Shown: piece by piece, positions 22,261 through 38,325 of the stretch
How positions within the stretch are numbered: the stretch's first letter is position 1
Layout: each line of letters begins with the position of its first letter
Assembly (NCBI GenBank): GCA_022840825.1
Contig: JALHDB010000001.1
Location: 54,059-118,058 of the forward strand
Source: Negativicutes bacterium
GTDB taxonomy: Bacteria > Bacillota > Negativicutes > JALHDB01
DNA: 64,000 nt
Direction of reading: 5' to 3'
Notes under the pieces: generated by a model
Told to the model about the DNA's origin: nothing
What the model saw: the letters and a program-made list of their open reading frames with translations, nothing else
The model's database searches: none
Translations under genes and position numbers: made by a program

Positions 22261-22342
<82 letters not shown>

Positions 22343-22344
22343 TC

Positions 22345-22388: not shown

Positions 22389-22654
22389 TAACATTCTTCT
22401 AACAAAGCAAACCACGGGCTACTTAAAATATCTCGAATTGGACTAATATAGATGCAGGAAAATATATATTTATACCGTGCAAGTTATAAAAATTGTTTAC
22501 GAAATAACGCCTGTCCTCAGACATTTTTTTATCGTGAGATTAATTTTTGAGTTGCCGGAACCATATCGTATTTAGCGGCAGACTGGATAAGCGCAGGTGG
22601 GCAGTGGAAGATAAGACTGCATTAGCCTCTAGATTAGGATTATTATCAAATCGT

Positions 22655-22699
22655 ATAGAAAAAACAAAGCAACCTGCGAAACAATTTCGCAGGTTGCTT
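22655..22699 (-). terminator. Terminator downstream of the integrase gene
   Basis: AAGCAACCTGCGAAA-caa-TTTCGCAGGTTGCTT 15-bp stem, T-run on the minus strand. Confidence 0.75.
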
Positions 22700-22728
22700 G
22701 ATTTGTATAGTGGGTAGTCGTTAACTCT

Positions 22729-23836
22729 CTAGGTGTTTTTCATAAGTAAGTCGTCAATCTTATCGGCAGCTGCCTCTTGCATCTGGGGCAGGACGTGACT
22801 GTAGATGTCTTGGGTTACCCGGGTGCTGGAATGCCCCAGCCGTTCGCTGATCACCTTGATTGGCACGCCAGCTGACAAAAGATACGTCGCGTGGCTATGC
22901 CGCAGATCGTGGAAGCGAATGATGGGAAGCAGCAAATCTTTCTTATCATTCTCCGGGATATCCGGATCTTCTTCAATTGACTTGTTATGGCGTTTGGCAG
23001 CTTTTGAAATGTCCGGTACAGATAATCCGGATCGTGCGGTCGTCCGTCGTCCCAGGCCCAGACAAAGTCCAGTTTGTGATAGAGCTTGCCGGCCGCCAGT
23101 CTCTGCTTGGCCTGTTCTTTGCGTTCGGCCTTTAACACTTCTTGCGTAGCATGGGGCAGCTTTACGGCCCGCTGGCTGCTGGAGGTTTTGACCGGGCGCA
23201 GCGTGAGCTTGCTGTCTTCCCAGTCCAGCGAATGCCGCAGGTGATGGCCAGCAGAATCGGAATGTATACGTTGGTGTTTTTGGCCGCTTCTACAAGAATG
23301 GCGATCTGCTCTGCCGTAACGATTCCCGCTTCATACTTCCGCTTGCGCGGAGGTTCTACGGCGAGGCAGGGATTATGTTCGATAATCTGCCAAGTGACCG
23401 CTTGATTCAGTGATTCCTTTAACACATTATAAACATAGCGGATCGAGGTTGGAGAAAGTCTAGTCTTGTGCAGACTATTGAAGAATTCTTGCAGATACAG
23501 CGGCCTTAATTGCTCCAGCTTATAGTGCCCGATCGTTGGGATCAGGTGCTTTTTTATTGCCCAGCTATAGCTGTCGTAGGTGGATGAGCGGACGCTGTTT
23601 TTGGCGTAGCTCTCCAGCCACTTCTCCAGGTACTCCTTGAGGGTTAGTTTGGAGGGCTCCACATAGGTATTGCCGTTAGCCTTGCGAATAATCTCTTCAA
23701 GCATGGCTTCGGCGGTTTTCTTACGGTTCGAATTGGTCGCGACCCATTTCTGCTTGCGCCTATGGGTTTTCGGATCTTGTCCCAAGTCGAGAATTATGTA
23801 GTATTGGCCGCCTTTTTTCTGGATGCTTCCCCGCAC
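22729..23836 (-). pseudogene. Tyrosine integrase (phage-integrase family) disrupted by two frame shifts
   Basis: Three consecutive minus-strand ORFs in three frames. 23836-23162 holds the SAM-like N-domain and ends at CGIR. 23138-22851 reads ..LDWEDSKLTL...DPDYLYRTF. 22935-22729 reads IRFHDLRHSHATYLL...DIYSHV with the catalytic H-x-x-R and Tyr. Confidence 0.85.
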
Positions 23837-23849
23837 GGTGCATCATCTC

Positions 23850-24509
23850 CTATGTTTGGGCAGGAGCAGGTCGGCGGGAGACAAACTCGATGATACTTTC
23901 CCTGACCCTGCCGATGATGTGGATCTGGTCATTCTCCAAGTCGGTGAAGAACAGAGTTTCATACACAGGGTTGGATGGTTGCAGAATAAGCAGGTTTGGT
24001 TTTTTTATCACGCGGTACAGTGTACCGGCTTGGTCTTTTACATTGACGATGGCGATGTCGCCGGAATCGACGTTGTCGGCCATCTCGATGAGAGCGAGGT
24101 CGCCCTCACCGATGCGGTCTCCCAGCATGCGGTTGTCTTGCACGCGCCATAGAAAATAATCTGGATTACCTTCTGGGCGCTCATCGGCCAAGTGTATCAC
24201 TTTATCCCCTTCGTAATCATCAAAGATTACCGATCCGTGCGAATGGTGAACAGTAGCGTAGATGGGAACCGGCATGCCGTGATAGCAGGCGGTATCCCGG
24301 TCTAGGGACGCTGGGATGCCGAGTAGAAAGTCCGTTGTGACGTTGTAGAGCAAAGACAACTTCATCAAGGTATCTGTATCGGGTCGGCGTAAACCACGTT
24401 CATAAGAAGCGACGGTGACCGTCCGGACGTTCAGCAAAATGGCTACCTGTTCCTGGGTGAGCCCTTTCTTTTTGCGCGCATTTTTCAGGTTTTCTCCCAG
24501 TGCAGCCAT
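23850..24509 (-). CDS. cI/LexA-like repressor: XRE HTH domain plus S24-peptidase-like C-terminal domain
   Basis: LKNARKKKGLTQEQVAILLNVRTVTVASYERG HTH; C-terminal DNRMLGDRIGEGDLALIE...GDIAIVNV...LYRVIKK...IIGRV resembles the S24 fold. Confidence 0.8.
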   Translation of the reverse strand: MAALGENLKNARKKKGLTQEQVAILLNVRTVTVASYERGLRRPDTDTLMKLSLLYNVTTDFLLGIPASLDRDTACYHGMPVPIYATVHHSHGSVIFDDYEGDKVIHLADERPEGNPDYFLWRVQDNRMLGDRIGEGDLALIEMADNVDSGDIAIVNVKDQAGTLYRVIKKPNLLILQPSNPVYETLFFTDLENDQIHIIGRVRESIIEFVSRRPAPAQT

Positions 24510-24562
24510 TTATCATCACGCTCCTCGATTTCTATTATAGTCCGATTTTGCAAAAATGCTAG

Positions 24563-24645
24563 TACATTTTGTAAAAAAATATCTAGACAGATACAAAATG
24601 TAAGAGTAAAATAAAAATCGTTCAAACAAATACATACAAATTGTA
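24563..24645. promoter_or_regulatory. Divergent immunity region with three TACA-N3-TGTA operator-like palindromes
   Basis: tacattttgta 24563-24573, tacaaaatgta 24592-24602, tacaaattgta 24635-24645. Candidate rightward promoter TAGACA-17-TAAAAT (24583-24611) overlaps the second site. Confidence 0.55.
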
Positions 24646-24663
24646 TTGGTAGAGGTGGTCAAT

Positions 24664-24900
24664 GTGACAAACAAGCACGGAAACGCATTACGGCGTGAGC
24701 GGGAGGCCAGAGGCTTGAAGGCATCGTATGTAGCCTATCGGCTGGGTGTTTCACCCGCCACCTATTCGCAGATCGAGAGGGAGAAGCAAGGCCTGAGCGT
24801 GGATCGGCTGCTGCGGATCCTGGCGATATTGGAAATCAAGCCGTCTGATTTTCTGGCGGCTGATAGCGCAACCAGCGGCAACGGAAAGAAGGCGATATGA
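24664..24900 (+). CDS. Cro-like XRE-family HTH regulator
   Basis: LRREREARGLKASYVAYRLGVSPATYSQIEREKQG HTH; divergent from the repressor. Start placed at GTG 24664 behind GAGGTGG (ORF track 24646). Confidence 0.75.
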   Translation: MTNKHGNALRREREARGLKASYVAYRLGVSPATYSQIEREKQGLSVDRLLRILAILEIKPSDFLAADSATSGNGKKAI

Positions 24901-25223
24901 TGTATTGCACAAAGTGTATGGGTAACATTCCGGAAGGGGCGAAATTCTGTCCGGTGTGCGGCAAAAAGGCTCTGGTCCCCAAGCCGAAAAAGGTGATTGA
25001 TATTGAATCCAAGCTAGGATTCAGCGTGGCCGAAGCAGCGGCTGCGGTCGGGGTTTCCAGCTGGTTTATCTACGAAGAGATCAAGCGGGGTTGCATCGGC
25101 TACGCCAAGCTGCACGGACGCAAAGTGATTCCCCGTTGGGACTTGGAGAAGTACCTACGGCAGAATGAAGTCCTCCCGCGCGAAGACAGCCCGGACGAGC
25201 CGGATAAGGGGGTACGGGTTTGA
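24897..25223 (+). CDS. Zinc-ribbon plus excisionase/MerR-like HTH DNA-binding protein
   Basis: N-terminal CxxC...CPVC ribbon; SVAEAAAAVGVSSWFIYEEIKRG...IPRWDLEKYL resembles excisionase-family HTH; ATGA overlap with the cro-like gene. Confidence 0.6.
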   Translation: MMYCTKCMGNIPEGAKFCPVCGKKALVPKPKKVIDIESKLGFSVAEAAAAVGVSSWFIYEEIKRGCIGYAKLHGRKVIPRWDLEKYLRQNEVLPREDSPDEPDKGVRV

Positions 25224-25355
25224 CATTATGGGACCGCGTCAAACAGCAGCATGCCGCCGACCGGGTGCTGGAGGATGTGATTGTGGGATTAGGACTACTT
25301 CTCTATTTCATCCTGCTATGGGAGCTGTAGGGCAAAAGAAGCGGGGCGGTGCAGT

Positions 25356-26171
25356 ATGGCGGCAGAGGCGCCAGGGTATGTGAAGCTCTACCGGCGGCTG
25401 GTGGACAAGCCGATCTGGCTGCAGTCCACTCCCGAGCAGAAGGCGGTGCTGATCGCCATTCTGCTGATGGCTAATTTTAAAGAACAGGAATGGCTATGGC
25501 AGGGAACCAAGTATCTTTGCCAGCCGGGGCAGTTTGTCAGCAGCCTGGAGGGGATCGCCAAACGGTGCGGCAAGGGTGTGTCTGCGCGAAATGTTCGGAC
25601 CGCGCTGGAAAAATTTCAAAACCTCGGATTTTTGACAAGCGAAGCGTCAAACCAGGGAAGGCTGGTGACGGTAGTAAATTGGCGGGTTTTTCAGCAGGAT
25701 GAGGAAGAAGCAGTCAAGCAACCGGTCAGGTACCAGTCAAACGACAGTCAAGCACCAGTCAGGCACCAGTCAACTAGTAAGAAAGAAAGAAGGAAAGAAA
25801 GCAATAAGGCAAACAAATACATACCGTATGAAGATATAGTGTCCGCCTTCAACTGCATCTGCATAGCACTGCCTAAAGTGATGTCGCTGACCAATAATCG
25901 AAAAAGCGTAATAGCGGCAAGGTGGGAGGACCTGGCCAGCCTCGAGGCCGTAGAAGACTTCTTCCGGCGAGTGGCTGCATCGGATTATCTATGCGGCCGG
26001 GTCAATACGTTTACCGCCAGTTTTGATTGGATCTTCAAAGAGGCCAATTTCGTCAAGGTGCGGGAAGGCAACTACGATAACCGTGAAAAACCGCCGGACA
26101 GTCCGGCGGTAGCCAGTCTGCGGCGGTTCTTGTCAGGGGGGAATGGCGATGACCAAGCAAATGGCCGCTAA
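25356..26171 (+). CDS. Phage replisome-organiser-like replication protein
   Basis: N-terminal winged-helix-like region (YVKLYRRLVDKPIW...GQFVSSLEGIAKRCG.SARNVRTALEKFQNLGFL) and conserved phage C-terminal region (ASFDWIFKEANFVKVREGNYDN), as recalled from phage replication proteins. Confidence 0.65.
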   Translation: MAAEAPGYVKLYRRLVDKPIWLQSTPEQKAVLIAILLMANFKEQEWLWQGTKYLCQPGQFVSSLEGIAKRCGKGVSARNVRTALEKFQNLGFLTSEASNQGRLVTVVNWRVFQQDEEEAVKQPVRYQSNDSQAPVRHQSTSKKERRKESNKANKYIPYEDIVSAFNCICIALPKVMSLTNNRKSVIAARWEDLASLEAVEDFFRRVAASDYLCGRVNTFTASFDWIFKEANFVKVREGNYDNREKPPDSPAVASLRRFLSGGNGDDQANGR

Positions 26172-26754
26172 GCTGGTATTTACTGCCGCGGCTAATTTCC
26201 CAGGGATGCAGAGCCGGCAGCTGGATGCCACCGCCGCCCTATGGCTGGAATCCTTCCGCAAGTACGAGGACAAGCAGATGGAGACAGCATTGCGGTTGGC
26301 GCTCTTTACCTGCAAATACTTCCCCACCGTTGCAGATCTGGAGGAGGCGGTAACCAGTCTGCGCTATAACGAGCAGACAGTCCCCAAACTGCCGATGGCC
26401 GATGATAAGAGGATTAATCCGAAGATCAGCGAGCTGATGAGCCGGGCGGCCAATGGGGAATTGCATGAACTGGCGACCGGGATCGACATTAGGGAGCTGA
26501 AAACATTTGCCCGGTCCCGCTACCCGAACCTGTCGGATGAATTGATCCGGTTGAATTGTATCGAGCTGATCCGGCTAAAAGAGGAAGTCACGCGCTGCGA
26601 ACGGTGCGGCGGACCGGAATATTGCCCGACAGGGCAGTACGCGGCGACCCCGCGCCTTGCGGCAAATGGGTATATTACGCTCGCTTACGATCGTTGCAGC
26701 AAATGGCAGCGGCAACCGGCGGACGGCGATCAGGGCAGGAGGTGGGGCAGATGA
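26149..26754 (+). CDS. G39P-like replicative-helicase loader/inhibitor domain protein with C-terminal zinc ribbon
   Basis: MTKQMAAKLVFTAAANFPG...LWLESFRKYEDKQMETALRLAL..CKYFPTVADLEEA pattern matches my recollection of the SPP1 G39P family; CERCGG...CPTG ribbon. Confidence 0.5.
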   Translation: MTKQMAAKLVFTAAANFPGMQSRQLDATAALWLESFRKYEDKQMETALRLALFTCKYFPTVADLEEAVTSLRYNEQTVPKLPMADDKRINPKISELMSRAANGELHELATGIDIRELKTFARSRYPNLSDELIRLNCIELIRLKEEVTRCERCGGPEYCPTGQYAATPRLAANGYITLAYDRCSKWQRQPADGDQGRRWGR

Positions 26755-27134
26755 ATTTCGTATCAATCAGCGGGCGGTTGGCGCAGAATCCCAAGAGCTA
26801 TGTAATAGACGAGGGGAAGACTGTCAGCCGGTTTACGGTTGCCGTGAACCGGTACTACGCGGGAGAGGAGCTGACGGATTTTATACCTGTTTCCGCATGG
26901 GGCAAGCTGGGAGATACTTGCAAGGAGAATCTATACCAGGGACGCAAGGTGCTGGTGGAGGGAAGGATAAGTATACGGAGCTATACCACGAAGACTGGGA
27001 AAAAGAATAGACTGGCCGAGATAGTGGCCAGCCGAGTGGTGTATCTAGATTATAAGAAGAATAGTCCCGCAGATTACGCCGCCGAGTTCGGGGAGGAGAT
27101 AGGGGAAGCTGAATATTTCGCGGGGAGAAAATAA
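26751..27134 (+). CDS. ssb: Single-stranded DNA-binding protein
   Basis: MNFVSISGRLAQNP...RFTVAVNR...FIPVSAWGKLGD.C..NLYQGRKVLVEGRI OB-fold pattern, acidic tail; ATGA overlap with the upstream gene, GGAGGTGGGG RBS. Confidence 0.88.
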   Translation: MNFVSISGRLAQNPKSYVIDEGKTVSRFTVAVNRYYAGEELTDFIPVSAWGKLGDTCKENLYQGRKVLVEGRISIRSYTTKTGKKNRLAEIVASRVVYLDYKKNSPADYAAEFGEEIGEAEYFAGRK

Positions 27135-27159
27135 GCACCCGAGGGGCGCTGTGAATGCA

Positions 27160-27576
27160 TTATTTAAGATAGGAATCAGAATTGTCCAGTTCAAAGCTAT
27201 AGTTTGTAACATTGTCTGTGATAGTAGATAAATCAATGGGACAGACGTTTGACACACTGTGTGTAGCCAACAATAATTCCTGTTCTTCAGAGAGAGTACC
27301 AGTTTTAATTCTCTGCTTAATGTTTTCACAGGCGTAGTGAAATAACAATTTTTTTACAGACTCATTTGGTAGTCGCCAGACTATAAGTAACGATGTTGTG
27401 ATGCCCACCCTGATGGTATGTTTGGTAGATAACGTTTGATGATGAGACCCAGTAGTTGAGGATAATTCTGTTACACAGAAAGGAAATAGGTATTCGGTTG
27501 CGTCCTTAAGCCGGGGCAGTTCGAACGGCTCAGAAAATGTGACTCTTTTTCTCAAGAGAAACCCTCCTTTCGACAT
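27160..27576 (-). CDS. Hypothetical protein (orphan, A+T-rich, antisense to the replication module)
   Basis: 138-aa ORF with an RBS-like AAAGGAGGG upstream; no recognisable motif. Confidence 0.45.
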   Translation of the reverse strand: MSKGGFLLRKRVTFSEPFELPRLKDATEYLFPFCVTELSSTTGSHHQTLSTKHTIRVGITTSLLIVWRLPNESVKKLLFHYACENIKQRIKTGTLSEEQELLLATHSVSNVCPIDLSTITDNVTNYSFELDNSDSYLK

Positions 27577-27943
27577 ATAATGCTACTTCTTTAAAAAGAG
27601 GTAAATTCCTTTTTTTGGTGAATTGCAATTTGATATTTTGGATTCGTGCGAAGCACCACTTTGCTTCTACCGCTGCGGCGTCGGATAAAGTCGGTTATGT
27701 ATGAACGGTCTGGGCGAAGACATAACCTCACTTTATCGGATGCCGATACCCCCAAAGAGTGGGGGAAGGGGGATGAATCCCCTGGGCAACTTGTCCGGAG
27801 AAATGGCCGCCTGATATAGTAGGCGGCCAAAAGTATTGTAAAGTATTAATTGGCGATATGCACGAAATGGGCAGAGAGCTTGAGCGCACGGGTGAGGCGG
27901 AGGGATACCGGAGACCGAACCGGTGCGCTAGGAAAGAGAGTAG

Positions 27944-28132
27944 ATGTCAAGTGGCGGAGGTGGGACCGGGTGCGAGCAGGCAATTGATCTTGGCCTGCGA
28001 AGGACAGCCCGGTGCGACCGGAGCATATATGTATGGCACGAGCGCAGCGGTCCGAGGACGGCAGACGAAAGACGGAGCAACGCGACGGCTGGAGGCCGCC
28101 CGCAGGAACGCGGAGCGGGACCGCTTAGCCAT
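27944..28132 (+). repeat. G+C-rich structured repeat element, copy A (candidate ncRNA or cis-regulatory leader)
   Basis: About 89 percent identical by hand alignment to the reverse complement of 32438-32628. Hairpins GCAGGC/GCCTGC and CCGG/CCGG. Reading frame not conserved between the copies. Confidence 0.75.
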
Positions 28133-28227
28133 ATTTCATGTTTGCAAAGTGATTGACCGCAGTATGGGCAGGATTAGCCTTCTTTTGAACGAAGCCTTAG
28201 TATAATATCGGAAAAGAAGGCGATGTC

Positions 28228-28788
28228 ATGTCCTGTCGAAAAATCTGTATTGACCCTGGCCATTCCGGTCCCAGTGAGCCAGGAGCATATGCAGGCGGAG
28301 TGAGCGAAGCTGAAGTCAATCTATTGATCACGAAGCGATTGGGGACCGTATTGGCTGACTGTGGTTATGAAGTGATTTATACCCGCGAGGGAGACATCGA
28401 GGATGATGCGCTATCTTGGCGGGCGGAGTTGGCCAACGAGCAGCAAGCGGATCTATTTATCAGCATCCATTGCAATGCAGCCGAAAATACGTTGGCACAG
28501 GGTTTCGAGATTTATCATTATCCCAACTCTGTTCTGGGAAAGCAGGTTGCAGAAAACATTCATCGAGCATTTAATCTGGCACCGTATACCTCAGATCGTG
28601 GAATAAAGAAAGCAGAATTCACCGTACTGTCAGAGACAGTCATGCCGGCAATACTGGTTGAGTGTGCGTTCTTAACTTCAGCGGATGATCGTAAGATACT
28701 AACGGATCCGGCTGGCCAGGCAATGATCTCATTAATCATTGCCATCGGTATTCACAAGTACTTCTTACCCAAGCTTATTAGTGACTGA
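28228..28788 (+). CDS. N-acetylmuramoyl-L-alanine amidase (Amidase_3 catalytic domain only)
   Basis: ICIDPGHSG...SIHCNA...GFEIYHY...AILVECAFLTS zinc-amidase motifs; close paralogue at 43408-43947. Confidence 0.88.
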   Translation: MSCRKICIDPGHSGPSEPGAYAGGVSEAEVNLLITKRLGTVLADCGYEVIYTREGDIEDDALSWRAELANEQQADLFISIHCNAAENTLAQGFEIYHYPNSVLGKQVAENIHRAFNLAPYTSDRGIKKAEFTVLSETVMPAILVECAFLTSADDRKILTDPAGQAMISLIIAIGIHKYFLPKLISD

Positions 28789-29024
28789 GCGCAGAAACAT
28801 ACGGATTACCTGTTGGAATACGAAACTTGATTCGATTGACCATCCTAGGCATTGGGCGTACTATGTAAGTGAACACACAATCAAATATCTTGCGGGGGAG
28901 AGCATTCATCACGCGGCTGGCGGCGCGTTATGCGCTGTTAGTATAAATCTTCCCCGCCGCAGGGCCGTGCTGGGATTTCCCAGTGCGGCTTTTGCATGCT
29001 CAGGGAGAAAAGGAGGCGAGTAGG

Positions 29025-29249
29025 ATGGCAGTAGTGAAGCAACCCAACGGATGCGTGCTGGCGGTACAAGTCCAAAATGGGATGAGTGCAGGCGGTACGC
29101 AGCTGTATAAGTACCTCCGGTACAAGAACATCAAAGGAGATGTCACCGATGATGCGTTGTTCGCAGTCGGGACCGGGCTGGCCGGTCTGCAAAGCTCGAT
29201 TGCAACCGCAATCCAGCGGCAAGACACCTCGAACTTGATCGAAGGCTAA
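29025..29249 (+). CDS. DUF1659 family small protein
   Basis: 74 aa behind an AAAGGAGG RBS (ORF-track frame of 28983-29249, start moved to ATG 29025); pattern and pairing with a DUF2922 gene as recalled for this family. Confidence 0.6.
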   Translation: MAVVKQPNGCVLAVQVQNGMSAGGTQLYKYLRYKNIKGDVTDDALFAVGTGLAGLQSSIATAIQRQDTSNLIEG

Positions 29250-29283
29250 TATCCCGCGAGGGAGGAAAAGGAGGTAACCGATT

Positions 29284-29496
29284 ATGAAAAAGACGATTGA
29301 AATGGTCTTTCGAAATGCGGGCAACAAGGAGATCGTGCTATATGTCCCATCGCCGCGCGAGGATTTAACGCTGGCGCAGGTGCAGCCGGTCATGCAGGAT
29401 ATCATCGCTAAGAATGTGTTTGATACTTCCGGCGGCGATCTAGTCCAGGTCGTTGAGGCGCGAGTCCGCATCACCGACACGACTTCGCTTGCATAG
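29284..29496 (+). CDS. DUF2922 family small protein
   Basis: MKKTIEMVFRNAGNKEIVLYVPSPREDLTLAQV...IIAKNVF pattern; AAAGGAGG RBS. Confidence 0.6.
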   Translation: MKKTIEMVFRNAGNKEIVLYVPSPREDLTLAQVQPVMQDIIAKNVFDTSGGDLVQVVEARVRITDTTSLA

Positions 29497-29684
29497 TAGA
29501 ATGTGCATGTAAAAACCGACGGGAGAAGGCGAGCAAGTGGACAATGAACTGAAAATCGTATATGGACCGGCACCGGATGTGGAAAGCCTGAATGGCGATA
29601 GTGATGAGCCGGATGAACTGGTCCAAGAAAGATAAGGTGGGGCGCTATGCGTCCCCTTATTATTTTATATGGGGGGTGAATGGT

Positions 29685-29894
29685 ATGGAAGAAATGATGA
29701 AGTTTGTCGGTCAAGTCGGCTTCCCAATCGTGGTAGCCGGATGGCTGCTCGTCAAGTTTGAGAACAAGCTAGATGCTGCCGAGGTGGCCATGCGCAGTCT
29801 GGGCGAGCGGCTGGAGATGCACCTGGCCCAGTGCGTGAAGTGCCGGGAGAGCCGGATGAATGGGAACTGTGAGAAGAAGGGAGAGGATAAGTAA
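29685..29894 (+). CDS. YvrJ family small membrane protein
   Basis: MEEMMKFVGQVGFPIVVAGWLLVKFENKLD matches the YvrJ N-terminal motif as I remember it; start moved to ATG 29685 within ORF 29592-29894. Confidence 0.6.
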   Translation: MEEMMKFVGQVGFPIVVAGWLLVKFENKLDAAEVAMRSLGERLEMHLAQCVKCRESRMNGNCEKKGEDK

Positions 29895-30040
29895 TGAAGC
29901 TACAGGAGATTGCGCGCTGCGTTGAAGTGCTGGATGAAGTAAGCGAGCTTCTGCCAGAAGATGTACTGGATGAGGAGAAGAGAAAACACCTGCATAAAAT
30001 TCACCAGGTGTTGGAGGCGTTATCGAGGTTAAGGATATAG
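29894..30040 (+). CDS. Possible 48-aa helical peptide
   Basis: ATG overlaps the yvrJ-like stop (TAATG); MKLQEIARCVEVLDEVSELLPEDVLDEEKRKHLHKIHQVLEALSRLRI; followed by a terminator; below the ORF-track cut-off. Confidence 0.35.
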   Translation: MKLQEIARCVEVLDEVSELLPEDVLDEEKRKHLHKIHQVLEALSRLRI

Positions 30041-30050
30041 TGCAAAGCAA

Positions 30051-30085
30051 AAATAGTACTTCCCATGCGAAGCACTATTTTTTTG
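30051..30085 (+). terminator. Rho-independent terminator closing the amidase-yvrJ operon
   Basis: AAATAGTACTTC-ccatgc-GAAGCACTATTT (one mismatch) plus T7. Confidence 0.75.
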
Positions 30086-30196
30086 AAAATTGTAGGAAAT
30101 TTTGTCATTATTAAAGGTAATTCGGATTAGCACAGTGAATAAAAAAGAAAGTATTTGTTAATTTATGCATTGATCTATGATGGTAGGAGTGATGCC

Positions 30197-32377
30197 ATGA
30201 TCCGGGAAATCAAGATCCATAAGATTGCTTCGTATGCTGATCCTGTAGTTATTCACCCGTTAAAAATAAATTTTTGCTATGGCAGTAACGGTAGTGGCAA
30301 GACCACCTTGTCAAATTTTCTTGGTGGTTATAAATCTTCAGAGGATAGTGCTATAGCCTGGAGAGATGAGCGAGAGCTCCCAGTAGTCGTATATAATAAA
30401 TGTTTTGTGGAAAATAATTTTGCTGCCAGAGAGCCTATAAGAGGTATTTTTACGTTGGGGCAAGATTCCAAAGAAGCACAAGAGTATATTGATAAGATGC
30501 AAGCAAAGGTGAATTTCTGTCAAACTCTGATCGACTCGTATTACAAATCGCTAATAGGCTTAAATTCTGAAATAAATGATTTGAATGATGAGTTTACGGA
30601 CACGTGTTGGGCAGTTCAGCAGATATACGGGCCAAAATTCCGGGAAGCATTAACGGGATTTAGAGCCAGTAAGGCCTTATTCCGAGATAATTGTTTGAAG
30701 GAATTTTCCAAACTGGATGCAGAAAATATTACTGATTTTACGGTAATCGAAGATATATATAATGCTGCTTATGGGACTATAGCACAAGAATATCCACTTT
30801 TTAAGCCAATTGATATACAAGAGGTTATCGAATGTGAAGCATGTTCCCTATTGGACAAGCGCATTTCCGGTAGCTCAGAAACACCGATTGGGAAGTTTAT
30901 TGAGTATTTAAACGCGAGCGACTGGGTGAAACAAGGGATTGGGTTTGCCCGGGAGGCGAAAGGCAAGTGTCCCTATTGTCAGCAACAACTGCCGATTGAT
31001 GTCCAAAAAGACATCGAAGGTTATTTTGACGAAACCTATAATAAAGAGTGCGAAACGGTGCGTAATTTTCAAATCCGGTATGTGACAGTATGCAACGAAT
31101 TGTTGGAGCGGATGCGAGATATTTCGCACACGTCTATTTCATTTTTGGAGTACACTTTGTTTAAAGCAGAAATAGAAGTGCTTGCAGCGGTAATTGAAAC
31201 GAATAAAAAAACAATTGAAAGGAAAATGGAGTCACCCTCAACTTTAGTAAATATCGAAAGTATTAAACCAATTGCACAGCGGATTAATACTAAAATTGAT
31301 GAGTTTAATGCCGCTATCAGACGCAATAATGAAATAGTGCAAAATAAAGCCGCGGAAAAGATGCGATGCAAAGAGCTTCTCTGGCAGCATATGGTTTATG
31401 AACTACGCTCGTCTATACAGCATTATAATGATAGGCTTAAAGGCAAGAAGGATGGGATTGTTAGGCTCAATAATAAAATTGACGAACAAAAGGCTTTAAA
31501 GAAGACACTTAATCTAATGATTGAGGAAAAGGAAGCAACGATGACTAGCGTTGCGCCTACAGTTAATGCAATAAATAGTATACTTGATCGCTTTGGCTTT
31601 AAAGGATTTCAATTAGCAGAGAACACTGAAGCCAGAGGTACATACAAAATTATACGCACAGATGGCAGCGATGCTCAAAAGAGCCTTAGCGAAGGCGAAT
31701 ACAACTTCATCACTTTCTTGTACTTTTATCACCTTGTTTACGGAAGTCAAGATAGTACAGGTATTGCCACCGATAAGGTCGTAGTGGTCGATGATCCGAT
31801 CTCAAGTTTAGATAGTAACGTACTTTTTATCATTAGTACATTGGTACGGAATATTCTCAATGACTGTAAAGCAGAAAAAAACGGAATTCAGCAGATTTTT
31901 GTGTTGACCCATAATGTGTATTTCCATAAAGAAGTATCATTTTTAGGTAGTCGAAAAGAGTATCCTTCTACAATGGCGGCATTTTGGATCGTGAAAAAAA
32001 ATAATAATGTCACCGAATTTGTTAAGCATGCAAAAAATCCAATTCAAACTGCTTATGAGTTGATGTGGTCAGAACTTAAAGATGGAAGTGCACATCAACG
32101 CGTAACGATTTTTAATACGCTTCGAAGAATACTCGAATATTATTTCAACGTTATTGGCGGGATGAACTATGAGAAGTGTATTGATGAGTTTGACGGCGAA
32201 GATAAAATCATCTGCAAGGCTTTGATTTCGTGTATAAACGATGGTTCGCATTTCATTAGTGATGACTATGTGCAGTGTTTTGAGACAGACTCGCTTGAGA
32301 ATTACTTTCGGGTCTTTAAATTGATATTTGAGAAAATGGGGCATGGTAGCCATTATGAAATGATGATGAATAGATAA
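30197..32377 (+). CDS. AAA_13-type ABC-like ATPase with zinc hook and C-terminal anticodon-nuclease-like domain (RloC/PrrC family candidate)
   Basis: Walker A GSNGSGKTT, long helical insert containing KGKCPYCQQQLP, signature-like LSEGEYNF, Walker B VVVVDDPISSLD, THN. C-terminal RRILE (R-x3-E) followed 38 aa later by NDGSH. Start moved to ATG 30197 behind AGGAG. Confidence 0.65.
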   Translation: MIREIKIHKIASYADPVVIHPLKINFCYGSNGSGKTTLSNFLGGYKSSEDSAIAWRDERELPVVVYNKCFVENNFAAREPIRGIFTLGQDSKEAQEYIDKMQAKVNFCQTLIDSYYKSLIGLNSEINDLNDEFTDTCWAVQQIYGPKFREALTGFRASKALFRDNCLKEFSKLDAENITDFTVIEDIYNAAYGTIAQEYPLFKPIDIQEVIECEACSLLDKRISGSSETPIGKFIEYLNASDWVKQGIGFAREAKGKCPYCQQQLPIDVQKDIEGYFDETYNKECETVRNFQIRYVTVCNELLERMRDISHTSISFLEYTLFKAEIEVLAAVIETNKKTIERKMESPSTLVNIESIKPIAQRINTKIDEFNAAIRRNNEIVQNKAAEKMRCKELLWQHMVYELRSSIQHYNDRLKGKKDGIVRLNNKIDEQKALKKTLNLMIEEKEATMTSVAPTVNAINSILDRFGFKGFQLAENTEARGTYKIIRTDGSDAQKSLSEGEYNFITFLYFYHLVYGSQDSTGIATDKVVVVDDPISSLDSNVLFIISTLVRNILNDCKAEKNGIQQIFVLTHNVYFHKEVSFLGSRKEYPSTMAAFWIVKKNNNVTEFVKHAKNPIQTAYELMWSELKDGSAHQRVTIFNTLRRILEYYFNVIGGMNYEKCIDEFDGEDKIICKALISCINDGSHFISDDYVQCFETDSLENYFRVFKLIFEKMGHGSHYEMMMNR

Positions 32378-32437
32378 TCAGAATTCATAATCTTTTAAAG
32401 GAGAAGCGGTTTGCTGCCGAGATATTCTTACCGTTGG

Positions 32438-32628
32438 ATGGGGTAACCGGTCCCGCTTCGCGTTCCTGCGGGCGGCCTCCAGCCGTCGCTTTGCGACGTC
32501 TTCCGTCTGCCGTCCTCGGACCGCTGCGCTCGTGTCCTACATATACGATCCGGTCGCACCGGGACGGACCTTCGCAGGCTAAAAACCATTGCCTGCTCGC
32601 ACCCGGTCCCACCTCCGCTACTTGGCAT
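32438..32628 (-). repeat. G+C-rich structured repeat element, copy B (inverted relative to copy A)
   Basis: 191 nt; 19 substitutions and 2 one-base indels versus copy A by hand alignment; no gene downstream on its strand. Confidence 0.75.
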
Positions 32629-32971
32629 TTACTCTCATGGAGTGCGCGCCTGCTGGCTTCGCCCAAGCGCGCCGCAGTGCATTCAAAGTGGGAGGCCATC
32701 CGATAATCAAGTATATGTCCACGCCGTCCGCTAACACCTGCGGGGCGGTCGGCTATGGCGCTCCGGCACCACCCTGCGGGGGACATATAAAGGGGATTAT
32801 CCGACGTCCTCCGGGCCTGCGGCAGCAAGGTGTAAGGACGACCTTGTTGTCTGACCGGTGTAGTGCGAATCAGATCGGGACATGCAGGGTTTTACTAAAT
32901 TATGTGTAAATAGGAAATCGTTATAAAGTGTTTATGGAGTATATGAAATATGGCACTTGGGGGAATGTGAC

Positions 32972-35524
32972 ATGGTTAAAGAGAAAGTCGGTAAGAAAAT
33001 GATTGAGCAATATGACCACAAGGATAAGCAACGGTCAAATAATCCGCCGGTCGGGCTGGTAACGCCTGATACCGATCAGGGCGAGAGTAAAAAGCAATAT
33101 GCTTACGACCCGCATATTGACCCCAGCCTACAGTGGGCTGGCAAGGCGGAGCATACGTCATTTACTGTGCCTACTGTTTCACTCCATGTCCATGAACGCA
33201 TCGACCCGCGAACAATTATTGAAGCCGTACGGCGTAAAAGCACCGAACCCAGTTATGAGCAGGGATCGCTATTTTCTGCTGCAACAGAAAATCCTCCTCT
33301 TAGGGAAGCAGTCGAGTTTTATAAGCACAAGCACAACTGGTCAAACCGGCTAATTGCCGGAGACTCTCTACTGGTGATGAACTCTTTGCTAGAAAAAGAA
33401 GGACTTGGTGGACAAGTCCAGATGATTTATATTGATCCGCCTTATGGAATTAAATACGGTTCAAATTTCCAGCCGTTTGTGAATAAACGTGATGTGAAAG
33501 ATGGTAAAGATGAGGATCTAACACAAGAACCTGAAATGATCAAAGCATTTCGGGACACCTGGGAACTAGGAATACATTCGTATTTGACTTATCTGCAAGA
33601 CAGATTATTACTTGCGAGAGAATTACTGGCCGAGACAGGTAGCATTTTTGTGCAGATTTCGGATACCAATATTCATTTAGTGCGCTGTTTATTAGATCAA
33701 ATATTTGGAACCGAGAACTTTTTTTCGCTTATATCCTTCAAAAAGACGTTACCCTTGGGAAGCTCAGGTTTGGCTGGAATATGTGATTATATTCTTTGGT
33801 ATACGAAAAGCAAAGATCTATTTGTGAAAAAGAAATATAGAGAGCTATTTGTTGAAAAGCGAATTGGTGAGGGAACCGGTTATACATGGGTCGAAGACGT
33901 TAATGGGTTAAGAAGGAAGATGTCAAAAGAAGAGCGGCTTGATCCTCGAAAAATACCATCTGACAGTAAAGTATTTTTCACTAGTGCTTTAGCATCATCT
34001 GGATATACTCCAACCTGTATGTACGATTTTGAATTTGAAGGCAAATTGATAAAGTGTGGAAAGAAGAGCTGGCGAACAAACGAAGATGGGATGAAACGCC
34101 TAATAAAACTAAATCGAATCACGGCTCCAGGATCACTACCTTGTTTTGTCCAATATTACGAGGACTTTCCAGTTCAACCGCTTCATAATCTCTGGGACGA
34201 TACACATGGCGCTAGCGAATTAAGATATGTCGTACAAACATCTAACAAAGTAATTCAGCGTTGCATGCTCATGGCTACTGATCCAGGAGACTTGGTCTTC
34301 GACCCTACTTGTGGTAGTGGAACGACTGCTTATGTTGCTGAATTATGGGGTCGTCGATGGATAACCTGCGATACATCCAGGGTGGCGGTAACCTTAACAA
34401 AACAAAGATTATTGACCTCAATATTTGACTATTTCAAGCTCGCTCATCCTGAAGAAGGAGTAGGTAGCGGTTTTAAATATAAAACTGTCCCGCATATTAC
34501 GCTGGGGTCAATTGCAAATAATGAACCAACTTTGCAGGAAACTTTATATGATCAACCATTACTAGATAATTCAAAGACTCGAGTAACTGGCCCATTTACT
34601 GTTGAGGCCGTACCAGCGCCAGTCGTCAAGCCGTTATCAGAAATAGATGCTACTATTCCCGCAGACGCCTCGGTTGCACGTTCGGGCGAAACGCTGCGCC
34701 AGTCTGAATGGCGCGATGAACTTATGAAGACAGGCATTCGCGGCAAGAATGGTCAGAGGATTCTATTTTCTCGTTTAGAGCCGATGGCTGGCACCAGGTG
34801 GCTGCATGGAGACGCTGAAACCAAGCCGAACGCAAATGGGGTTCGGGAAACGTCAGAGCAGCTTGACCAGCCTGTACGGGCTGTCATATCGTTTGGCTCG
34901 CCTCATGCGCCACTCGAGACTAAGCAGGTGACGCTGGCTCTGGAAGAAGCTCACAAGTTGGTGCCAAAACCGAAACTGATTGTATTCGCTGCCTTCCAAT
35001 TTGACCCGGAAGCGGCTAAAGATATTGATGAAATCGAGTGGCCGGGTGTAACGATTCTCAAGGTACAAATGAATACTGACCTGCTAACAGACGACTTGAA
35101 AAAGAAACGGGCTAGTAATGAGAGCTTTTGGTTGATCGGTCAGCCTGACGTCAAAGTAAAGCGAATTTCAAAGGGAATAGATAAAGGCAAATACCAGGTG
35201 GAAGTTCTGGGATTCGACTATTACAACACAAAGACCGGTATGATCGAATCCGGTGGCAATGAGCGAATTACTATTTGGTTGCTGGATACTGACTATGACG
35301 GACGCAGTTTATTCGCCCGCCAGGTCTTCTTCCCTATGGCAGGTAAAGGTGAAGGATGGGACAAGTTGGCGAAGAATTTGAAAGCGGAGATTGATTCGGA
35401 GCTAATTGAGGCATACTCGGGAACTGTATCTTTGCCATTCAAGCCGGGTAAGTATAACCGGGTGGCAGTAAAGATTGTTGACGATAGAGGTATTGAGAGC
35501 CTGAAAATTGTGGAGGTGGAATGA
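32972..35524 (+). CDS. mod: Type III restriction-modification DNA methyltransferase (Mod), beta-class N6-adenine/N4-cytosine type
   Basis: Motif IV IYIDPPYG precedes motif I FDPTCGSGTT (order IV-TRD-I); about 300-aa C-terminal extension. Start set at ATG 32972 (ORF track 32957). Confidence 0.85.
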   Translation: MVKEKVGKKMIEQYDHKDKQRSNNPPVGLVTPDTDQGESKKQYAYDPHIDPSLQWAGKAEHTSFTVPTVSLHVHERIDPRTIIEAVRRKSTEPSYEQGSLFSAATENPPLREAVEFYKHKHNWSNRLIAGDSLLVMNSLLEKEGLGGQVQMIYIDPPYGIKYGSNFQPFVNKRDVKDGKDEDLTQEPEMIKAFRDTWELGIHSYLTYLQDRLLLARELLAETGSIFVQISDTNIHLVRCLLDQIFGTENFFSLISFKKTLPLGSSGLAGICDYILWYTKSKDLFVKKKYRELFVEKRIGEGTGYTWVEDVNGLRRKMSKEERLDPRKIPSDSKVFFTSALASSGYTPTCMYDFEFEGKLIKCGKKSWRTNEDGMKRLIKLNRITAPGSLPCFVQYYEDFPVQPLHNLWDDTHGASELRYVVQTSNKVIQRCMLMATDPGDLVFDPTCGSGTTAYVAELWGRRWITCDTSRVAVTLTKQRLLTSIFDYFKLAHPEEGVGSGFKYKTVPHITLGSIANNEPTLQETLYDQPLLDNSKTRVTGPFTVEAVPAPVVKPLSEIDATIPADASVARSGETLRQSEWRDELMKTGIRGKNGQRILFSRLEPMAGTRWLHGDAETKPNANGVRETSEQLDQPVRAVISFGSPHAPLETKQVTLALEEAHKLVPKPKLIVFAAFQFDPEAAKDIDEIEWPGVTILKVQMNTDLLTDDLKKKRASNESFWLIGQPDVKVKRISKGIDKGKYQVEVLGFDYYNTKTGMIESGGNERITIWLLDTDYDGRSLFARQVFFPMAGKGEGWDKLAKNLKAEIDSELIEAYSGTVSLPFKPGKYNRVAVKIVDDRGIESLKIVEVE

Positions 35525-38325
35525 TGGGCAAAGCGACGATTGACCAGCTCATAATTAACTCTCCATACGCAGAGCCGGCCCGTCATTGGAGTTTTGATCC
35601 ACTTACGAGGCTATTCAGCCTAGAAGATGGCCGTCGCCCGGCCGGATATGTAGTAGCCTCTGGACACTCACAGGCTTTTGATGATCCTGGTGTGTTTGTC
35701 GAGATACCTTTGGTAAATCAAATCCGGCCACGAGTTAAGGCATGGCGTGAGGCAGGTTATCCCGGCGTAACCGGCATAACTAAACGATTGCTTGAACACT
35801 GGACGAGCCCGGAGTGGCAAGCGGACCGCAGTTTTTTCTTTTGCCAGCTCGAGGCCGTCGAGACGTTGATGTGGTTGACGGAAGCGCCGGATACGGAAAA
35901 GGTAGGCATTACTATTCCTTCAGACGGCGGACAATTTAGCCGTCTCTGTTCGAAAATGGCTACCGGGTCAGGTAAAACCATTGTAATGGCCATGGTGATT
36001 GCCTGGCAGGTCCTTAATAAAGCGACATATCCGCAGCGCCCTGAATTTAGCAAAAACGTATTGGTTGTAGCGCCTGGGCTGACGGTGAAAAGCCGATTGC
36101 AGGTGCTTATTCCTTTTGGCAGTGGAAATTATTACGAACAGTTCAGATTGATCCCACCCGGCATGGAGGACAAACTGCGCCAGGGGCGAGTTATCGTACG
36201 AAACTGGCATGCGTTCAGCTGGGATAGTCCCGAAAAGCTGGCGAAGAAAAAGAGTGTTGACAAGCGCGGTGCGAAAAGCGATGAAGCATATGTACGAGAA
36301 GTCTTAGGCGAGATGGCTAATGCATCTAATATCCTAGTGATCAATGACGAGGCGCACCATGCCTGGCGGATTCCCGCAGAATCAAAAGTAAAGGGGTTAA
36401 AAAAAGAAGACATTGAGGAAGCAACTATCTGGGTTGGCGGACTTGATCGCATCCACCGTGCCCGCGGCATTTTGCGCTGCCATGATTTTTCGGCCACTCC
36501 ATTCGCACCATCCGGCAAAAAGAGCTCAGATGAAGCGCTGTTTGGCTGGATTGTCAGCGACTTCGGCCTTAATGACGCAATTGAAGCGGGACTAGTTAAG
36601 ACACCCCGGGTGGTCATTCGTGACGATAGCAGTCTGACTAAGGACTTTAAGTCCAGACTGTACCATATATACAATGATCCGGAAGTGAAGGACGACCTGA
36701 ACCGCAAAGCGGAAGAATATGAAATGCTGCCGGACTTACTGATTAACGCCTATTATCTCCTGGGTAAGGATTGGCTGGAAGCCGCTAAGGCATGGGAAGC
36801 TGTCGGTCACAAAGTACCGCCGGTCATGATCACCGTCGCTAATCGTACGGAAACTGCCGCCAGAGTGAAATATGCTTTTGATCATAATAAGATCCGGATT
36901 GATGAACTTTGCGCCCCGGAGAGAACGTTGCATATCGACTCCAGCGTTCTCGAATTAGCAGAGACAGCGTCAGAGACAGCCGAGCCGGGAACAGAACTCG
37001 ATTCCGATGAGGGGCAGGATTCAGAGGAGCAGCCTGAACGTAAATTGACGAAGAAGGAACTGGCTGAACAACTTCGACGCAAGGTAGATACAGTCGGGCA
37101 GGTGGGCAAGCCGGGAGGTCAGATTCAGAACGTCATCTCGGTCGGTATGTTATCTGAGGGTTGGGATGCAAAAACAGTTACCCATATCATGGGACTGAGG
37201 GCTTTCTCTAGCCAACTTCTCTGCGAACAGGTAGTTGGTCGTGGATTAAGACGGACCTCCTATGACGTAAACCCAGATACAGGTCTGTTCGAGGCCGAGT
37301 ATGTCAACATTTTCGGTGTACCGTTTACCTTCTTACCGCATGAAGGCGGGGGAGGAACGCCGCCACCTCCGCCGCCACCCAAAAAGCAGATTGAACCAGT
37401 AGCGGAGAAACAGCAGTTCGCTATTAGTTGGCCGAATATCGTTCGCATTGACCATATATATAAGCCGGTTCTGGAACTCGACCTGAGTAGCCTGAGAGTC
37501 TTAGAACTTAATGCTGCCGATACTGCCATGTTAGCTGAATTAGCGCCGGTCGTTGACGGCAATCCTGATGTGACAAAGATTGCCGCTATCGATTTAGAGG
37601 ACCTAGAGCGGAAGTTCCGGCTGCAGAAAATTGTCTTTGAAACCGCCCGTGACATATTTGATCAGATGCAACCAACATGGAAGGGTAGCAAAGACTATTT
37701 AATTGCACAAGTGATCCGGTTGGTCGAGAAATTCCTGACATCTAATAAAATTCAGATCGTTCCGCCCTTGTTCCAAGATGAAGCAAAACGGCGCGTCTTG
37801 ATGGCAATTAATATGGGGAAAATTGTCCAGCATATCTGGGAAGCCATCCGGATTACAAACACAGAGATGATAACCCCCGTATTTGACACGCAAAGCCCAA
37901 TTCGCTCTACCGGCGATATGAGGACATGGTACACTGGGCGGCCCTGTGAATACGCAGCGAAGTCCCATATCAATCTCTGCGTATTTGATAGCAGATGGGA
38001 AGCTAGCGAGGCATTTGAGCTGGATCGGAACAAGCTAGTTGATGCATGGGTCAAGAACGACCATCTCGGCTTTGAAATTCTATATATTTTCAACGGCGTC
38101 GTCAGCAAGTATCGCCCGGACTTTATCATCCGCCTGACGACAGGTGAATATCTGGTACTCGAGACCAAAGGACAGGATAATCAGAACAATCGTACCAAGA
38201 GAGAGTTCTTAGACGAATGGGTAAGAGCCGTCAATCAACATGGCGGGTTTGGTACATGGAAGTGGGCGGTGTCTTACAATATTGCAGATGTTAAAGGGAT
38301 TATTGAGCAGGCGGTTAAGGGTTAG
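35521..38325 (+). CDS. res: Type III restriction enzyme Res subunit (SF2 helicase plus PD-(D/E)xK nuclease)
   Basis: MATGSGKT (motif I), NDEAHH (II), SATP (III), QVVGRGLRR (VI); C-terminal YRPDF...LETKG nuclease motif; ATGA overlap with mod. Confidence 0.85.
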   Translation: MMGKATIDQLIINSPYAEPARHWSFDPLTRLFSLEDGRRPAGYVVASGHSQAFDDPGVFVEIPLVNQIRPRVKAWREAGYPGVTGITKRLLEHWTSPEWQADRSFFFCQLEAVETLMWLTEAPDTEKVGITIPSDGGQFSRLCSKMATGSGKTIVMAMVIAWQVLNKATYPQRPEFSKNVLVVAPGLTVKSRLQVLIPFGSGNYYEQFRLIPPGMEDKLRQGRVIVRNWHAFSWDSPEKLAKKKSVDKRGAKSDEAYVREVLGEMANASNILVINDEAHHAWRIPAESKVKGLKKEDIEEATIWVGGLDRIHRARGILRCHDFSATPFAPSGKKSSDEALFGWIVSDFGLNDAIEAGLVKTPRVVIRDDSSLTKDFKSRLYHIYNDPEVKDDLNRKAEEYEMLPDLLINAYYLLGKDWLEAAKAWEAVGHKVPPVMITVANRTETAARVKYAFDHNKIRIDELCAPERTLHIDSSVLELAETASETAEPGTELDSDEGQDSEEQPERKLTKKELAEQLRRKVDTVGQVGKPGGQIQNVISVGMLSEGWDAKTVTHIMGLRAFSSQLLCEQVVGRGLRRTSYDVNPDTGLFEAEYVNIFGVPFTFLPHEGGGGTPPPPPPPKKQIEPVAEKQQFAISWPNIVRIDHIYKPVLELDLSSLRVLELNAADTAMLAELAPVVDGNPDVTKIAAIDLEDLERKFRLQKIVFETARDIFDQMQPTWKGSKDYLIAQVIRLVEKFLTSNKIQIVPPLFQDEAKRRVLMAINMGKIVQHIWEAIRITNTEMITPVFDTQSPIRSTGDMRTWYTGRPCEYAAKSHINLCVFDSRWEASEAFELDRNKLVDAWVKNDHLGFEILYIFNGVVSKYRPDFIIRLTTGEYLVLETKGQDNQNNRTKREFLDEWVRAVNQHGGFGTWKWAVSYNIADVKGIIEQAVKG

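Follow-up and report, generated by a model that had tools for sequence, protein, structure and literature searches.

Undescribed large, modular, hairpin-dense non-coding elements with a conserved place in phage-derived islands of Negativicutes

What are the two inverted, G+C-rich non-coding repeats that bracket an amidase gene and its neighbors in a Negativicutes genome? The 64,000-nt stretch of contig JALHDB010000001.1 analyzed here (hereafter the window) carries one copy on each strand, A (+) and B (−), singled out in a first-pass annotation made from the sequence alone. Both copies are real. A repeat search recovers them as two adjoining pairs of inverted segments, 28008–28130/32441–32563 (123 nt, 91% identity) and 27936–28010/32562–32636 (75 nt, 87%), which BLASTN fuses into one match between 27936–28130 (+) and 32636–32441 (−), 196 nt long and 89.3% identical (E = 4.6e-70). 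Local alignment finds 20 substitutions and one single-base indel where 19 and two had been counted, and the copy ends first given were roughly right but off by 2–8 nt; the three uninterrupted identical blocks, 31 nt each, are present exactly as quoted. No further copy is found in the window by BLASTN or by the covariance models R1 and R2 described below. As detailed in the following paragraphs, A and B prove to be diverged members of a hitherto undescribed family of large, modular, G-rich and hairpin-dense non-coding elements, which we name E elements. The family has ordered modules (M0 to M5), and its position and orientation within one type of genomic island are conserved.

The unit size of ~190 nt initially proposed was not borne out. 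The 196-nt repeat (27936–28130 (+) in A, 32441–32636 (−) in B) is the 3′ half of an element of 450–500 nt. Copy A spans ~495 nt (27640–28135, +), as judged by sequence, fold stability, and matches to R1 and R2, and consists, in order, of module M1, several local hairpins, module M4, a lineage-specific insert, and the 3′ domain M5. Its M1 (27672–27750, +), identified by motif search and independent folds, is a long hairpin of the form CGUC-G-GAUAA ... UUAUC-G-GAUG, and its M5 (28040–28120, +), with helices P1 to P4 and conserved purine-rich internal loops, is matched by R1 (57 bits, E = 1e-10) and by R2. Copy B spans ~450 nt (32441–32890, −), as judged by sequence, R1 and R2 matches, and the M1 motif. 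In B, the M1 hairpin occupies 32689–32813 (−), with GUCGGAUAA starting at 32805 and UUAUCGGAUG ending at 32697, and M5 occupies 32451–32531 (−), with matches to R1 (69 bits, E = 1.5e-13) and R2 (32 bits, E = 6e-6). The 5′ halves of A and B have this M1 hairpin in common, although they are no longer alignable as sequence. The insert between M4 and M5, which is specific to the A/B lineage (GGGACCGGGUGCGA ... CGCAGCGGUCC), holds the GCAGGC/GCCUGC and CCGG-UGCGA-CCGG hairpins noticed previously.

The hairpins that had been named upstream of A are all in the sequence and in its minimum-free-energy fold, which contains GGTTATGT/ACATAACC, CCCCC/GGGGG, GGGGA/TCCCC, and GGCCGCC/GGCGGCC. The 501-nt region around A folds far better than shuffled sequences (z = −6.1, with 0 of 100 shuffles as good), and the effect is weaker for B and its flanks (z = −1.8). 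Open reading frames (ORFs) do overlay the two copies (27858–28205 and 32385–32828), but, as had been argued, it is the nucleotide sequence and the structure that are conserved rather than a protein. The A/B indel shifts the frame, the translation of the B ORF has no homolog among 5.8 billion proteins, and the hairpin lengths of the relatives differ by non-multiples of 3. We therefore rejected a protein-coding gene.

Relatives were found through loci encoding homologs of the amidase, a degenerate two-block DNA pattern, one spurious ORF, and two covariance models. R1 represents the constant 3′ domain M5 (∼80 nt), and R2 represents M3-M4-M5 and was built from five sequences that did not include A or B. 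Within the window, R2 matches at A (24 bits) and at B, and nowhere else; since neither copy contributed to the model, this is an independent confirmation of their homology to the relatives. A first scan with R1 identified 13 copies on 10 sources with E values from 1e-20 to 2e-4, a range extending to 1e-3 once new loci are included. The copies are in the window (A and B) and in loci (designated L followed by a number) L012, L013 (three copies), L015, L099, L101, L103, L104, L105, L117/118/119, L120/121, L122, and L124 (two copies). Homologs are on record in ∼12 other contigs. The named hosts are all Negativicutes, i.e. Sporomusaceae, "Veillonellaceae" metagenome-assembled genomes (MAG) and, as judged by the amidase, relatives of Pelosinus, the sole exception being a MAG assigned to Patescibacteria that nevertheless agrees with the others in its amidase and gene content. 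The family is also rare: the two-block pattern retrieved a single JGI metagenome contig and no IMG/VR contig, and representative genomes have one to three copies in the pattern scan. Exact 20- and 22-mers of A and B gave nothing but chance matches in GTDB genomes and IMG/VR, all in high-G+C genomes, and a first version of the two-block pattern gave mostly chance matches in coding sequence. A six-frame concatenated protein query found the one spurious ORF, which led to locus L105. In the Pelosinus MAG that has the closest named relative of the amidase (L007), the cassette is followed downstream by a different non-coding stretch, likewise rich in hairpins and G+C (7600–8525, −); it matches neither R1 nor R2 and may be unrelated or a very diverged counterpart.

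Members of the family range from 0.3 to 1 kb, and every one of them ends in M5 (∼80 nt). The full-length elements measure ∼810 nt in L124 (360–1172), ∼650 nt in L101, and ∼1 kb in L117, whereas L105, L015, and L103 have shorter forms without M0 to M2. M0 is recognized by GACCYKAGCCG, M2 by a hairpin flanked by GCGUGAUCCGG and GGUUGACGCCGA and followed by a 5′ core hairpin, M3 by GCCAAGCCGCGACCGUGGCCG, and M4 by GCRGUGGCGGAAG. In the RNAalifold prediction, a 13-bp helix with an invariant U-G pair joins M3 to M4. M1, which is also present in L009, L012, L101, L090, and L124, consists of a closing helix, CGUC-G-GAUAA, two covarying helices around a conserved UUAUGU/ACAUAA, and UUAUC-G-GAUG. All seven M1 sequences, those of A and B included, fold independently to this one architecture with differing stems, for example GAUAAAGU/ACUUUAUC, GAUAAUC/GAUUAUC, GAUAAUAG/CUAUUAUC, GAUAAC/GUUAUC, and GACAAUAG/CUAUUGUC. 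M5 is an irregular hairpin with helices P1 (GCG/CGC), P2 (CCC/GGG, or UCC/GGA in the window), P3 (CGGC/GCCG), and a variable apical P4, interrupted by the conserved purine-rich internal loops GAAGA and ARACGRAAG, the latter opposite CUGGAG. Over the 13 copies, 93.7% of the cells are paired and 6 of 18 pairs change on both sides. Not one of 500 shuffles reaches these values, and sliding the partners by 1–3 columns reduces pairing to 28–45%. In this set of few, related sequences, base-pairing in M5 and M1 has been kept through compensatory changes, and that of M5 exceeds both the shuffled and the slid controls.

Several details of these structures stand apart. A kink-turn has a C-stem and a 3-nt bulge followed by tandem sheared G-A/A-G pairs, with an A beside the C-stem on the opposing strand. 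The P2/P3 junction of M5 pits CCC-GAA/GAC/GAG-GA-(A)CGGC against GCCG..N-A-GGG. All copies have the A that precedes GGG, and 11 of 12 have the GA that follows the bulge, but two extra nt lie on the non-bulged strand, and position 2n varies. The junction may be likened to the kink-turn Kt-7, with an imperfect fit. CGGUCC, on the 5′ side of M5, is able to pair either with the 3′ end of M5 (28049–28056/28104–28112) or with an upstream GGACCG (27964–27969/28049–28054). Relatives have CGGCCC in its place and GGGCCG upstream, the U/C change being compensated in both alternative pairings. The arrangement might be a structural switch, or it might arise by chance where G+C is high. The make-up of the elements is mosaic. 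A module X of ∼95 nt (UGGUGAAUGC...GAAGGAUG) precedes M3 in L015 (∼690–780) and follows it in L103 (∼905–1005, −), suggesting that modules can be reshuffled, and M5 occurs in tandem in L013, L117, and L122. In L012, a solo degenerate M5 (3406–3483, +) has its first 36 nt identical to the full copy 1.85 kb upstream; the identity ends in the P4 hairpin loop, two opposite-strand genes lie between the copies, and this may be a recombination scar. In L117 (7299–7355) and L013 (520–576), a short ORF within the E region starts with MKxKxGKKHxRQLxxATHG, with mostly synonymous-type differences. A small conserved ORF inside the element was rejected, since the likeness ends after 19 codons and is not found in the window copies.

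The A/B pair differs from other pairs in its degree of internal similarity. Over their last 200 nt, A and B are 87% alike, and either of them is 57–64% identical to any relative. In L124 and L013, by contrast, the paired copies resemble one another no more than they resemble copies on other contigs. Concerted evolution of pairs, seen in A/B only, was therefore rejected as a general rule. A Logan contig (L005, 4406 nt, from three samples) corresponds to ∼28083–32488 of the window and has both ends inside the repeats; such breaks are expected when an assembler with k = 31 meets identical blocks of 31 nt, and they carry no information on inversion.

The first-pass annotation had not been able to place the sequence in a known family, and the searches bear this out. 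With Rfam 15, the whole window gives one tRNA and nothing else at the gathering threshold, the region 27300–33200 gives three chance-level matches at E up to 10, none overlapping A or B, and ten related loci give nothing inside any E element at E up to 5. The families without a covariance-model match include GOLLD, ROOL, OLE, HEARO, raiA, c4 antisense RNA, and riboswitches. Queried by BLASTN, 50,697 phage records and 72,556 plasmids yielded no real match to A or to the L101 element. Terminal inverted repeats and target duplications are absent from both copies, confirming the lack of likeness to insertion sequences (IS) and miniature inverted-repeat transposable elements (MITE). A MITE or IS terminus was rejected on the further grounds that the A/B pair is the only repeat in 26–35 kb, that the island has no transposase, and that the copies are diverged. 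Three other identities were dismissed. In a diversity-generating retroelement, mismatches would be restricted to adenines in one copy, a reverse transcriptase would lie nearby, and the variable repeat would form the 3′ end of a target gene; here, the 20 substitutions are of all kinds, with adenine of either copy involved in no more than 5–6 of them, the copies are inverted and non-coding, and no reverse transcriptase domain is found among the island genes. Integron attC sites are imperfect palindromes of 57–141 nt found after each cassette ORF and accompanied by intI and attI, whereas E elements are 300–1000 nt long, there is one for several genes, and there is no intI. A sponge of the CsrB/RsmZ type would have GGA motifs well in excess of its composition, displayed in loops, and an accompanying csrA gene; here, GGA occurs within ∼1–2 standard deviations of mononucleotide shuffles in 10 of 10 elements, and tblastn found no csrA in the window or the loci.

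Which strand, and which nucleic acid, would do the work? On the element strand, full-length elements have ∼35–41% G and 10–17% T. In each of the seven full-length elements, this G-rich strand forms the more stable fold of the two, by 11–18% in six and by only ∼1% in copy B; the corresponding energies are −211 versus −179 kcal/mol for copy A, and −389 versus −331 and −497 versus −435 kcal/mol for other elements. The M3/M4 helix has its invariant U-G pair, in the M3–M5 alignment (A4) nine cells are G-U and two are C-A, and the G-rich strand has a UUCG loop in L103 and a GAAA loop in L012. Composition, fold energies, the excess of G-U, and these loops together favor RNA, and the working molecule is probably an RNA transcribed from the G-rich strand.

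The two copies lie within a mobile island. The 3′ half of a tRNA gene (22261–22333) is exactly duplicated as a 51-nt direct repeat, at 22292–22342 (+, attL side) and 40300–40350 (+, attR side), which places A and B inside an 18-kb island (22292–40350) integrated at the tRNA gene. Its G+C content is above that of the flanks. As established from gene calls and Pfam, also taken from an identical NCBI contig (L004), the island encodes in order an apparently disrupted integrase, a cI-like repressor, helix-turn-helix genes, and a replication module (DnaD/Lin1244_N-like, DnaC/IstB-like, and SSB, ending at 27134). These are followed by a small opposite-strand gene, copy A, and the cassette bracketed by the two elements (28228–29894, +), i.e. 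Amidase_3 (28228–28788), DUF1659 (29025–29249), DUF2922 (29284–29496), and a YvrJ-family gene (29592–29894). Then come an AAA_13 gene, copy B on the opposite strand, type III mod and res genes, a DUF6338 gene, and one more ORF. The AAA_13 gene (30155–32377, +; Pfam 2e-170), referred to as RloC-like and identified by PADLOC as PDC-S06 (2e-251), is cargo convergent with B. It has 37–39% G+C within an island of ∼50%, and its place is taken by AlbA_2/HATPase_c_4 in L013 and by no cargo at all in L009; the gene has the look of cargo acquired recently. In the integrase region (22851–23836, −), an N-terminal SAM-like part of 224 amino acids is called and a 95-amino acid C-terminal piece lies in another frame; as far as the reading frames tell, island excision may have been lost. 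Outside the island, a second Amidase_3 paralog (43408–43944, +) follows a small upstream ORF and is 66% identical to the first, and its locus has no DUF1659, DUF2922, or YvrJ genes and no E element.

Comparison with the related islands reveals a standard layout. A tRNA or tmRNA site is followed by integrase, cI-like repressor, cro, xis, replication genes, E(+), optional cargo, a cassette of (antirepressor)-amidase-DUF1659-DUF2922-YvrJ, defense cargo, E(−), optional cargo, and att. The same island type lies beside tRNA genes in L117 and L122 and beside tmRNA-like ends in L009 and L105. E(+) follows the replication genes, starting at or within ∼50 nt of the stop codon of the last of them in L124, L090, and L120, and in each of the eight islands where it occurs (the window, L012, L013, L015, L117/118, L120/121, L122, and L124) it points the same way as the amidase cassette. 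The first-pass annotation had likened copy A to a structured leader of the amidase gene. The upstream copy is indeed always co-oriented with the cassette and directly precedes it in the window, L117, and L122, but opposite-strand cargo intervenes in L012, L013, L015, L120, and L124, and in L013 and L120/L121 an antirepressor gene lies there as well. Full inverted pairs bracket the cassette together with same-strand cargo in the window, L013 (E(−) at 7634–7285), and L124 (E(−) at 13323–13071). L120/L121 has a partial downstream partner on the opposite strand, and L009 has an inverted M1-bearing copy downstream of the cassette, with no upstream copy detected. That copy B has nothing downstream is no oddity, since the 3′ end of an element usually lies close to the stop codon of a convergent gene (within 0–60 nt in six of eight cases). 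These unrelated convergent genes include Fic, ankyrin-like and HNH-like genes (both by eye), and AAA_13, and two AlbA_2/HATPase_c_4 convergent genes are further off, at ∼150–230 nt. Cargo in the related islands is of the usual anti-phage kind, with type II/III restriction-modification, parts of CBASS, GmrSD, and AAA_15/21. In L101, a locus without the amidase cassette (4357–8000, −), the element abuts AlbA_2/HATPase_c_4, TatD-like, and QueC-like genes, and the last two, assigned by eye, suggest a Qat-like defense set.

How might such elements work? Our preferred reading, held tentatively and at somewhat less than even confidence, is that E elements constitute a new class of large structured RNA, transcribed from the G-rich strand, and form part of the layout of a phage-derived Negativicutes island. 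That this RNA acts in cis on transcription entering the cassette and cargo is a more doubtful step, suggested by the geometry. Transcription leaving the replication operon would read E(+) in sense before reaching the cassette, and transcription from the far side would read E(−) in sense before running antisense into cargo and cassette. Whether sense or antisense transcripts extend into the lysis-like and toxic defense genes would then depend on the folded E RNA, through altered elongation or altered transcript stability. The DUF1659/DUF2922 pair of the cassette, families that are encoded inside every bracket, might supply partners. A literature search on the motifs, Negativicutes RNA motifs, and DUF names gave a single lead, a preprint on their relatives SroA and SroB of Staphylococcus aureus. 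In that species, the level of sigS mRNA is increased by the DUF1659 protein SroA, and that of its convergent cis-antisense RNA by the DUF2922 protein SroB (bioRxiv 10.1101/2022.10.19.512975). By analogy, the E RNA could gate the cassette and its toxic cargo from both sides, with its state read out by DUF1659/DUF2922 proteins choosing between sense and antisense, an elaboration that we regard as quite unlikely.

A number of observations weigh against this view. The DUF1659/DUF2922 connection is a lead by analogy, from one preprint and a distant genus. Cis-acting antitermination RNAs such as put and EAR are 70–120 nt long, as compared with 0.4–1 kb for E. Some related amidase islands (L106–L111 and L115) have no E element in the R1 scan, and in the window a distance of 7.7 kb, which includes sense-strand cargo, separates E(−) from attR. 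Many pairs are invariant, the covariation amounting to few events among related sequences, and in M5 alone G-U cells are about as frequent as A-C cells, so that wobble pairs there leave the strand unfixed. Mosaic modules, tandem M5, and solo fragments would also fit selfish repeats or arrays of protein-binding sites. Finally, scans for promoters and terminators were uninformative. No intrinsic terminator was found after A or B, and a consensus scan upstream of A gave no convincing promoter, its sole match being inside the element. Just upstream of B, and divergent from mod, there is a putative promoter-like site (TTTATA-17-CATAAT, 32899–32927, −) that rests on a consensus match.

Two alternatives give the elements a function of another sort. 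They might be free-standing genes for large trans-acting non-coding RNAs in the manner of GOLLD and ROOL, producing a stable particle or scaffold RNA with its target outside the locus. The large, ornate, modular structure with its constant 3′ domain agrees with this idea, as do the location in phage-derived islands next to tRNA or tmRNA genes, the placement, in B, L015, L103, and L105, downstream of a divergent gene and upstream of a convergent one, and the promoter-like site upstream of B. We nevertheless find it unlikely, because E(+) often starts at the stop codon of the preceding co-oriented gene and leaves no room for a promoter, a fixed position and orientation relative to the cassette are unnecessary for action in trans, and size (0.3 to 1 kb) and module content vary widely with no consistent terminator. 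Alternatively, they might be cis sites at the DNA level, i.e. a replication origin and a second inverted region, or signals for single-strand initiation or packaging, working as folded single-stranded DNA or through an R-loop of the G-rich transcript. In many phages the origin sits after the replication genes, and in the window, L090, L120, and L124 this is where E(+) lies, directly behind the replication module; there are two inverted copies 4–12 kb apart, the strong skew of G over C on one strand favors R-loops, and the recurrent motif GCGAAGC is a very stable DNA mini-hairpin. What is conserved, however, is compensatory pairing and purine-rich internal loops rather than iterons, there is no common A+T-rich unwinding region, and the UUCG/GNRA-type loops and conserved G-U pairs point to RNA. 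Moreover, L101, L104, and L105 have an element without replication genes on the available sequence, which for L104 and L105 is a short contig. Altogether, this makes a DNA site rather unlikely.

Two further alternatives make the copies a matter of repeat biology. Selfish mosaic intergenic repeats of the BOX/BIME/MITE kind, located at gene ends and affecting transcript ends only incidentally, would account for the mosaic modules, the tandem M5 and the solo degenerate M5, and for 3′ ends that abut the stops of unrelated convergent genes, which could be terminated by the complementary strand, where a U-rich stretch (CUUUCGUUU) comes after the P4 hairpin. Such an origin is improbable for elements present in one to three copies per genome (with one match in JGI and none in IMG/VR), lacking terminal inverted repeats and target duplications, diverged within each genome except for A/B, and conserved in order and orientation in one island type. 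It had also been suggested that A and B are recombination substrates allowing the 4.3-kb segment between them to flip as a switch. They would be suitable for this, being inverted, 89% identical over 196 nt, and in possession of three exact 31-nt blocks, and their 87% identity to each other against 57–64% to relatives fits gene conversion between them. Yet the island has no invertase and its integrase is apparently disrupted. Flipping would turn the genes of the segment, all on the + strand, away from the transcription of the replication operon, and since no gene or promoter would move relative to the others within the segment, there is no obvious switching logic. The orientation of the cassette relative to its flanks is the same in every island, the same inverted bracket in the unrelated islands L013 and L124 argues for a fixed architecture, and a contig break inside the repeats is expected from a k = 31 assembler anyway. 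We consider flipping highly improbable.

Set beside known systems, the E family, read as structured RNA, is akin in kind to GOLLD and ROOL and in geometry to put/nut or P4 ori/crr, and appears to belong to none of them. GOLLD and ROOL (Rfam RF01998 and RF03087) are large structured prophage RNAs, often near tRNA genes, whose function is unknown. E elements share with them a length of several hundred nt, an ornate structure with a conserved core and a variable periphery, and a location in phage-derived DNA near tRNA/tmRNA genes, but differ in having no sequence or structure match to either (at E up to 5–10 over six regions searched with Rfam), a fixed place and orientation in the island, an arrangement in inverted pairs, and a restriction to Negativicutes. 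The put RNAs of HK022 and the nut sites of lambda act in cis to modify RNA polymerase, so that downstream terminators are suppressed, and lie directly downstream of their own promoters. The resemblance is one of geometry only, with two inverted copies read in sense by transcription that leaves the early region, ahead of the genes further downstream; put is ∼70 nt long with two stem-loops, whereas E is 0.3–1 kb and has no sequence similarity to it. P4 ori/crr likewise comprises two inverted cis elements a few kb apart, one of them by the replication gene. However, those are short iteron arrays bound by the alpha protein, whereas E has no common iterons, keeps hairpin pairing and internal loops, and is strand-asymmetric. 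With BOX of Streptococcus and BIME/REP of enterobacteria, E elements have in common a modular mosaic of hairpins and an intergenic location at gene ends, but those repeats are 100–300 nt long and number tens to hundreds per genome, whereas E elements are larger, number one to three per genome, and occur in one island type. With SroA/SroB the islands share the same two protein families, and the sense/antisense effects described there would mirror the convergent geometry of E(+) and E(−), in another organism and locus, where no E-like structured element is described.

To our knowledge, only a handful of large structured bacterial RNAs lacking a known function have come to light (OLE, GOLLD, ROOL, raiA, and HEARO), and each of these opened new biology. 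The E family is absent from Rfam, rare, lineage-restricted, and unusually fixed in place and orientation in a mobile island that carries defense genes. The cargo of these islands includes PDC-S06, type II/III restriction-modification, CBASS, GmrSD, Fic, and AlbA_2/Schlafen-like genes. If the elements are origins or other DNA sites, they would still show which replication or boundary signals this undescribed Negativicutes island family uses. If, on the other hand, they are cis-acting RNAs, they would explain how a lysis-like cassette and toxic cargo are held silent or made inducible in these islands, and they would offer a testable RNA partner for the widespread, uncharacterized DUF1659/DUF2922/YvrJ trio.

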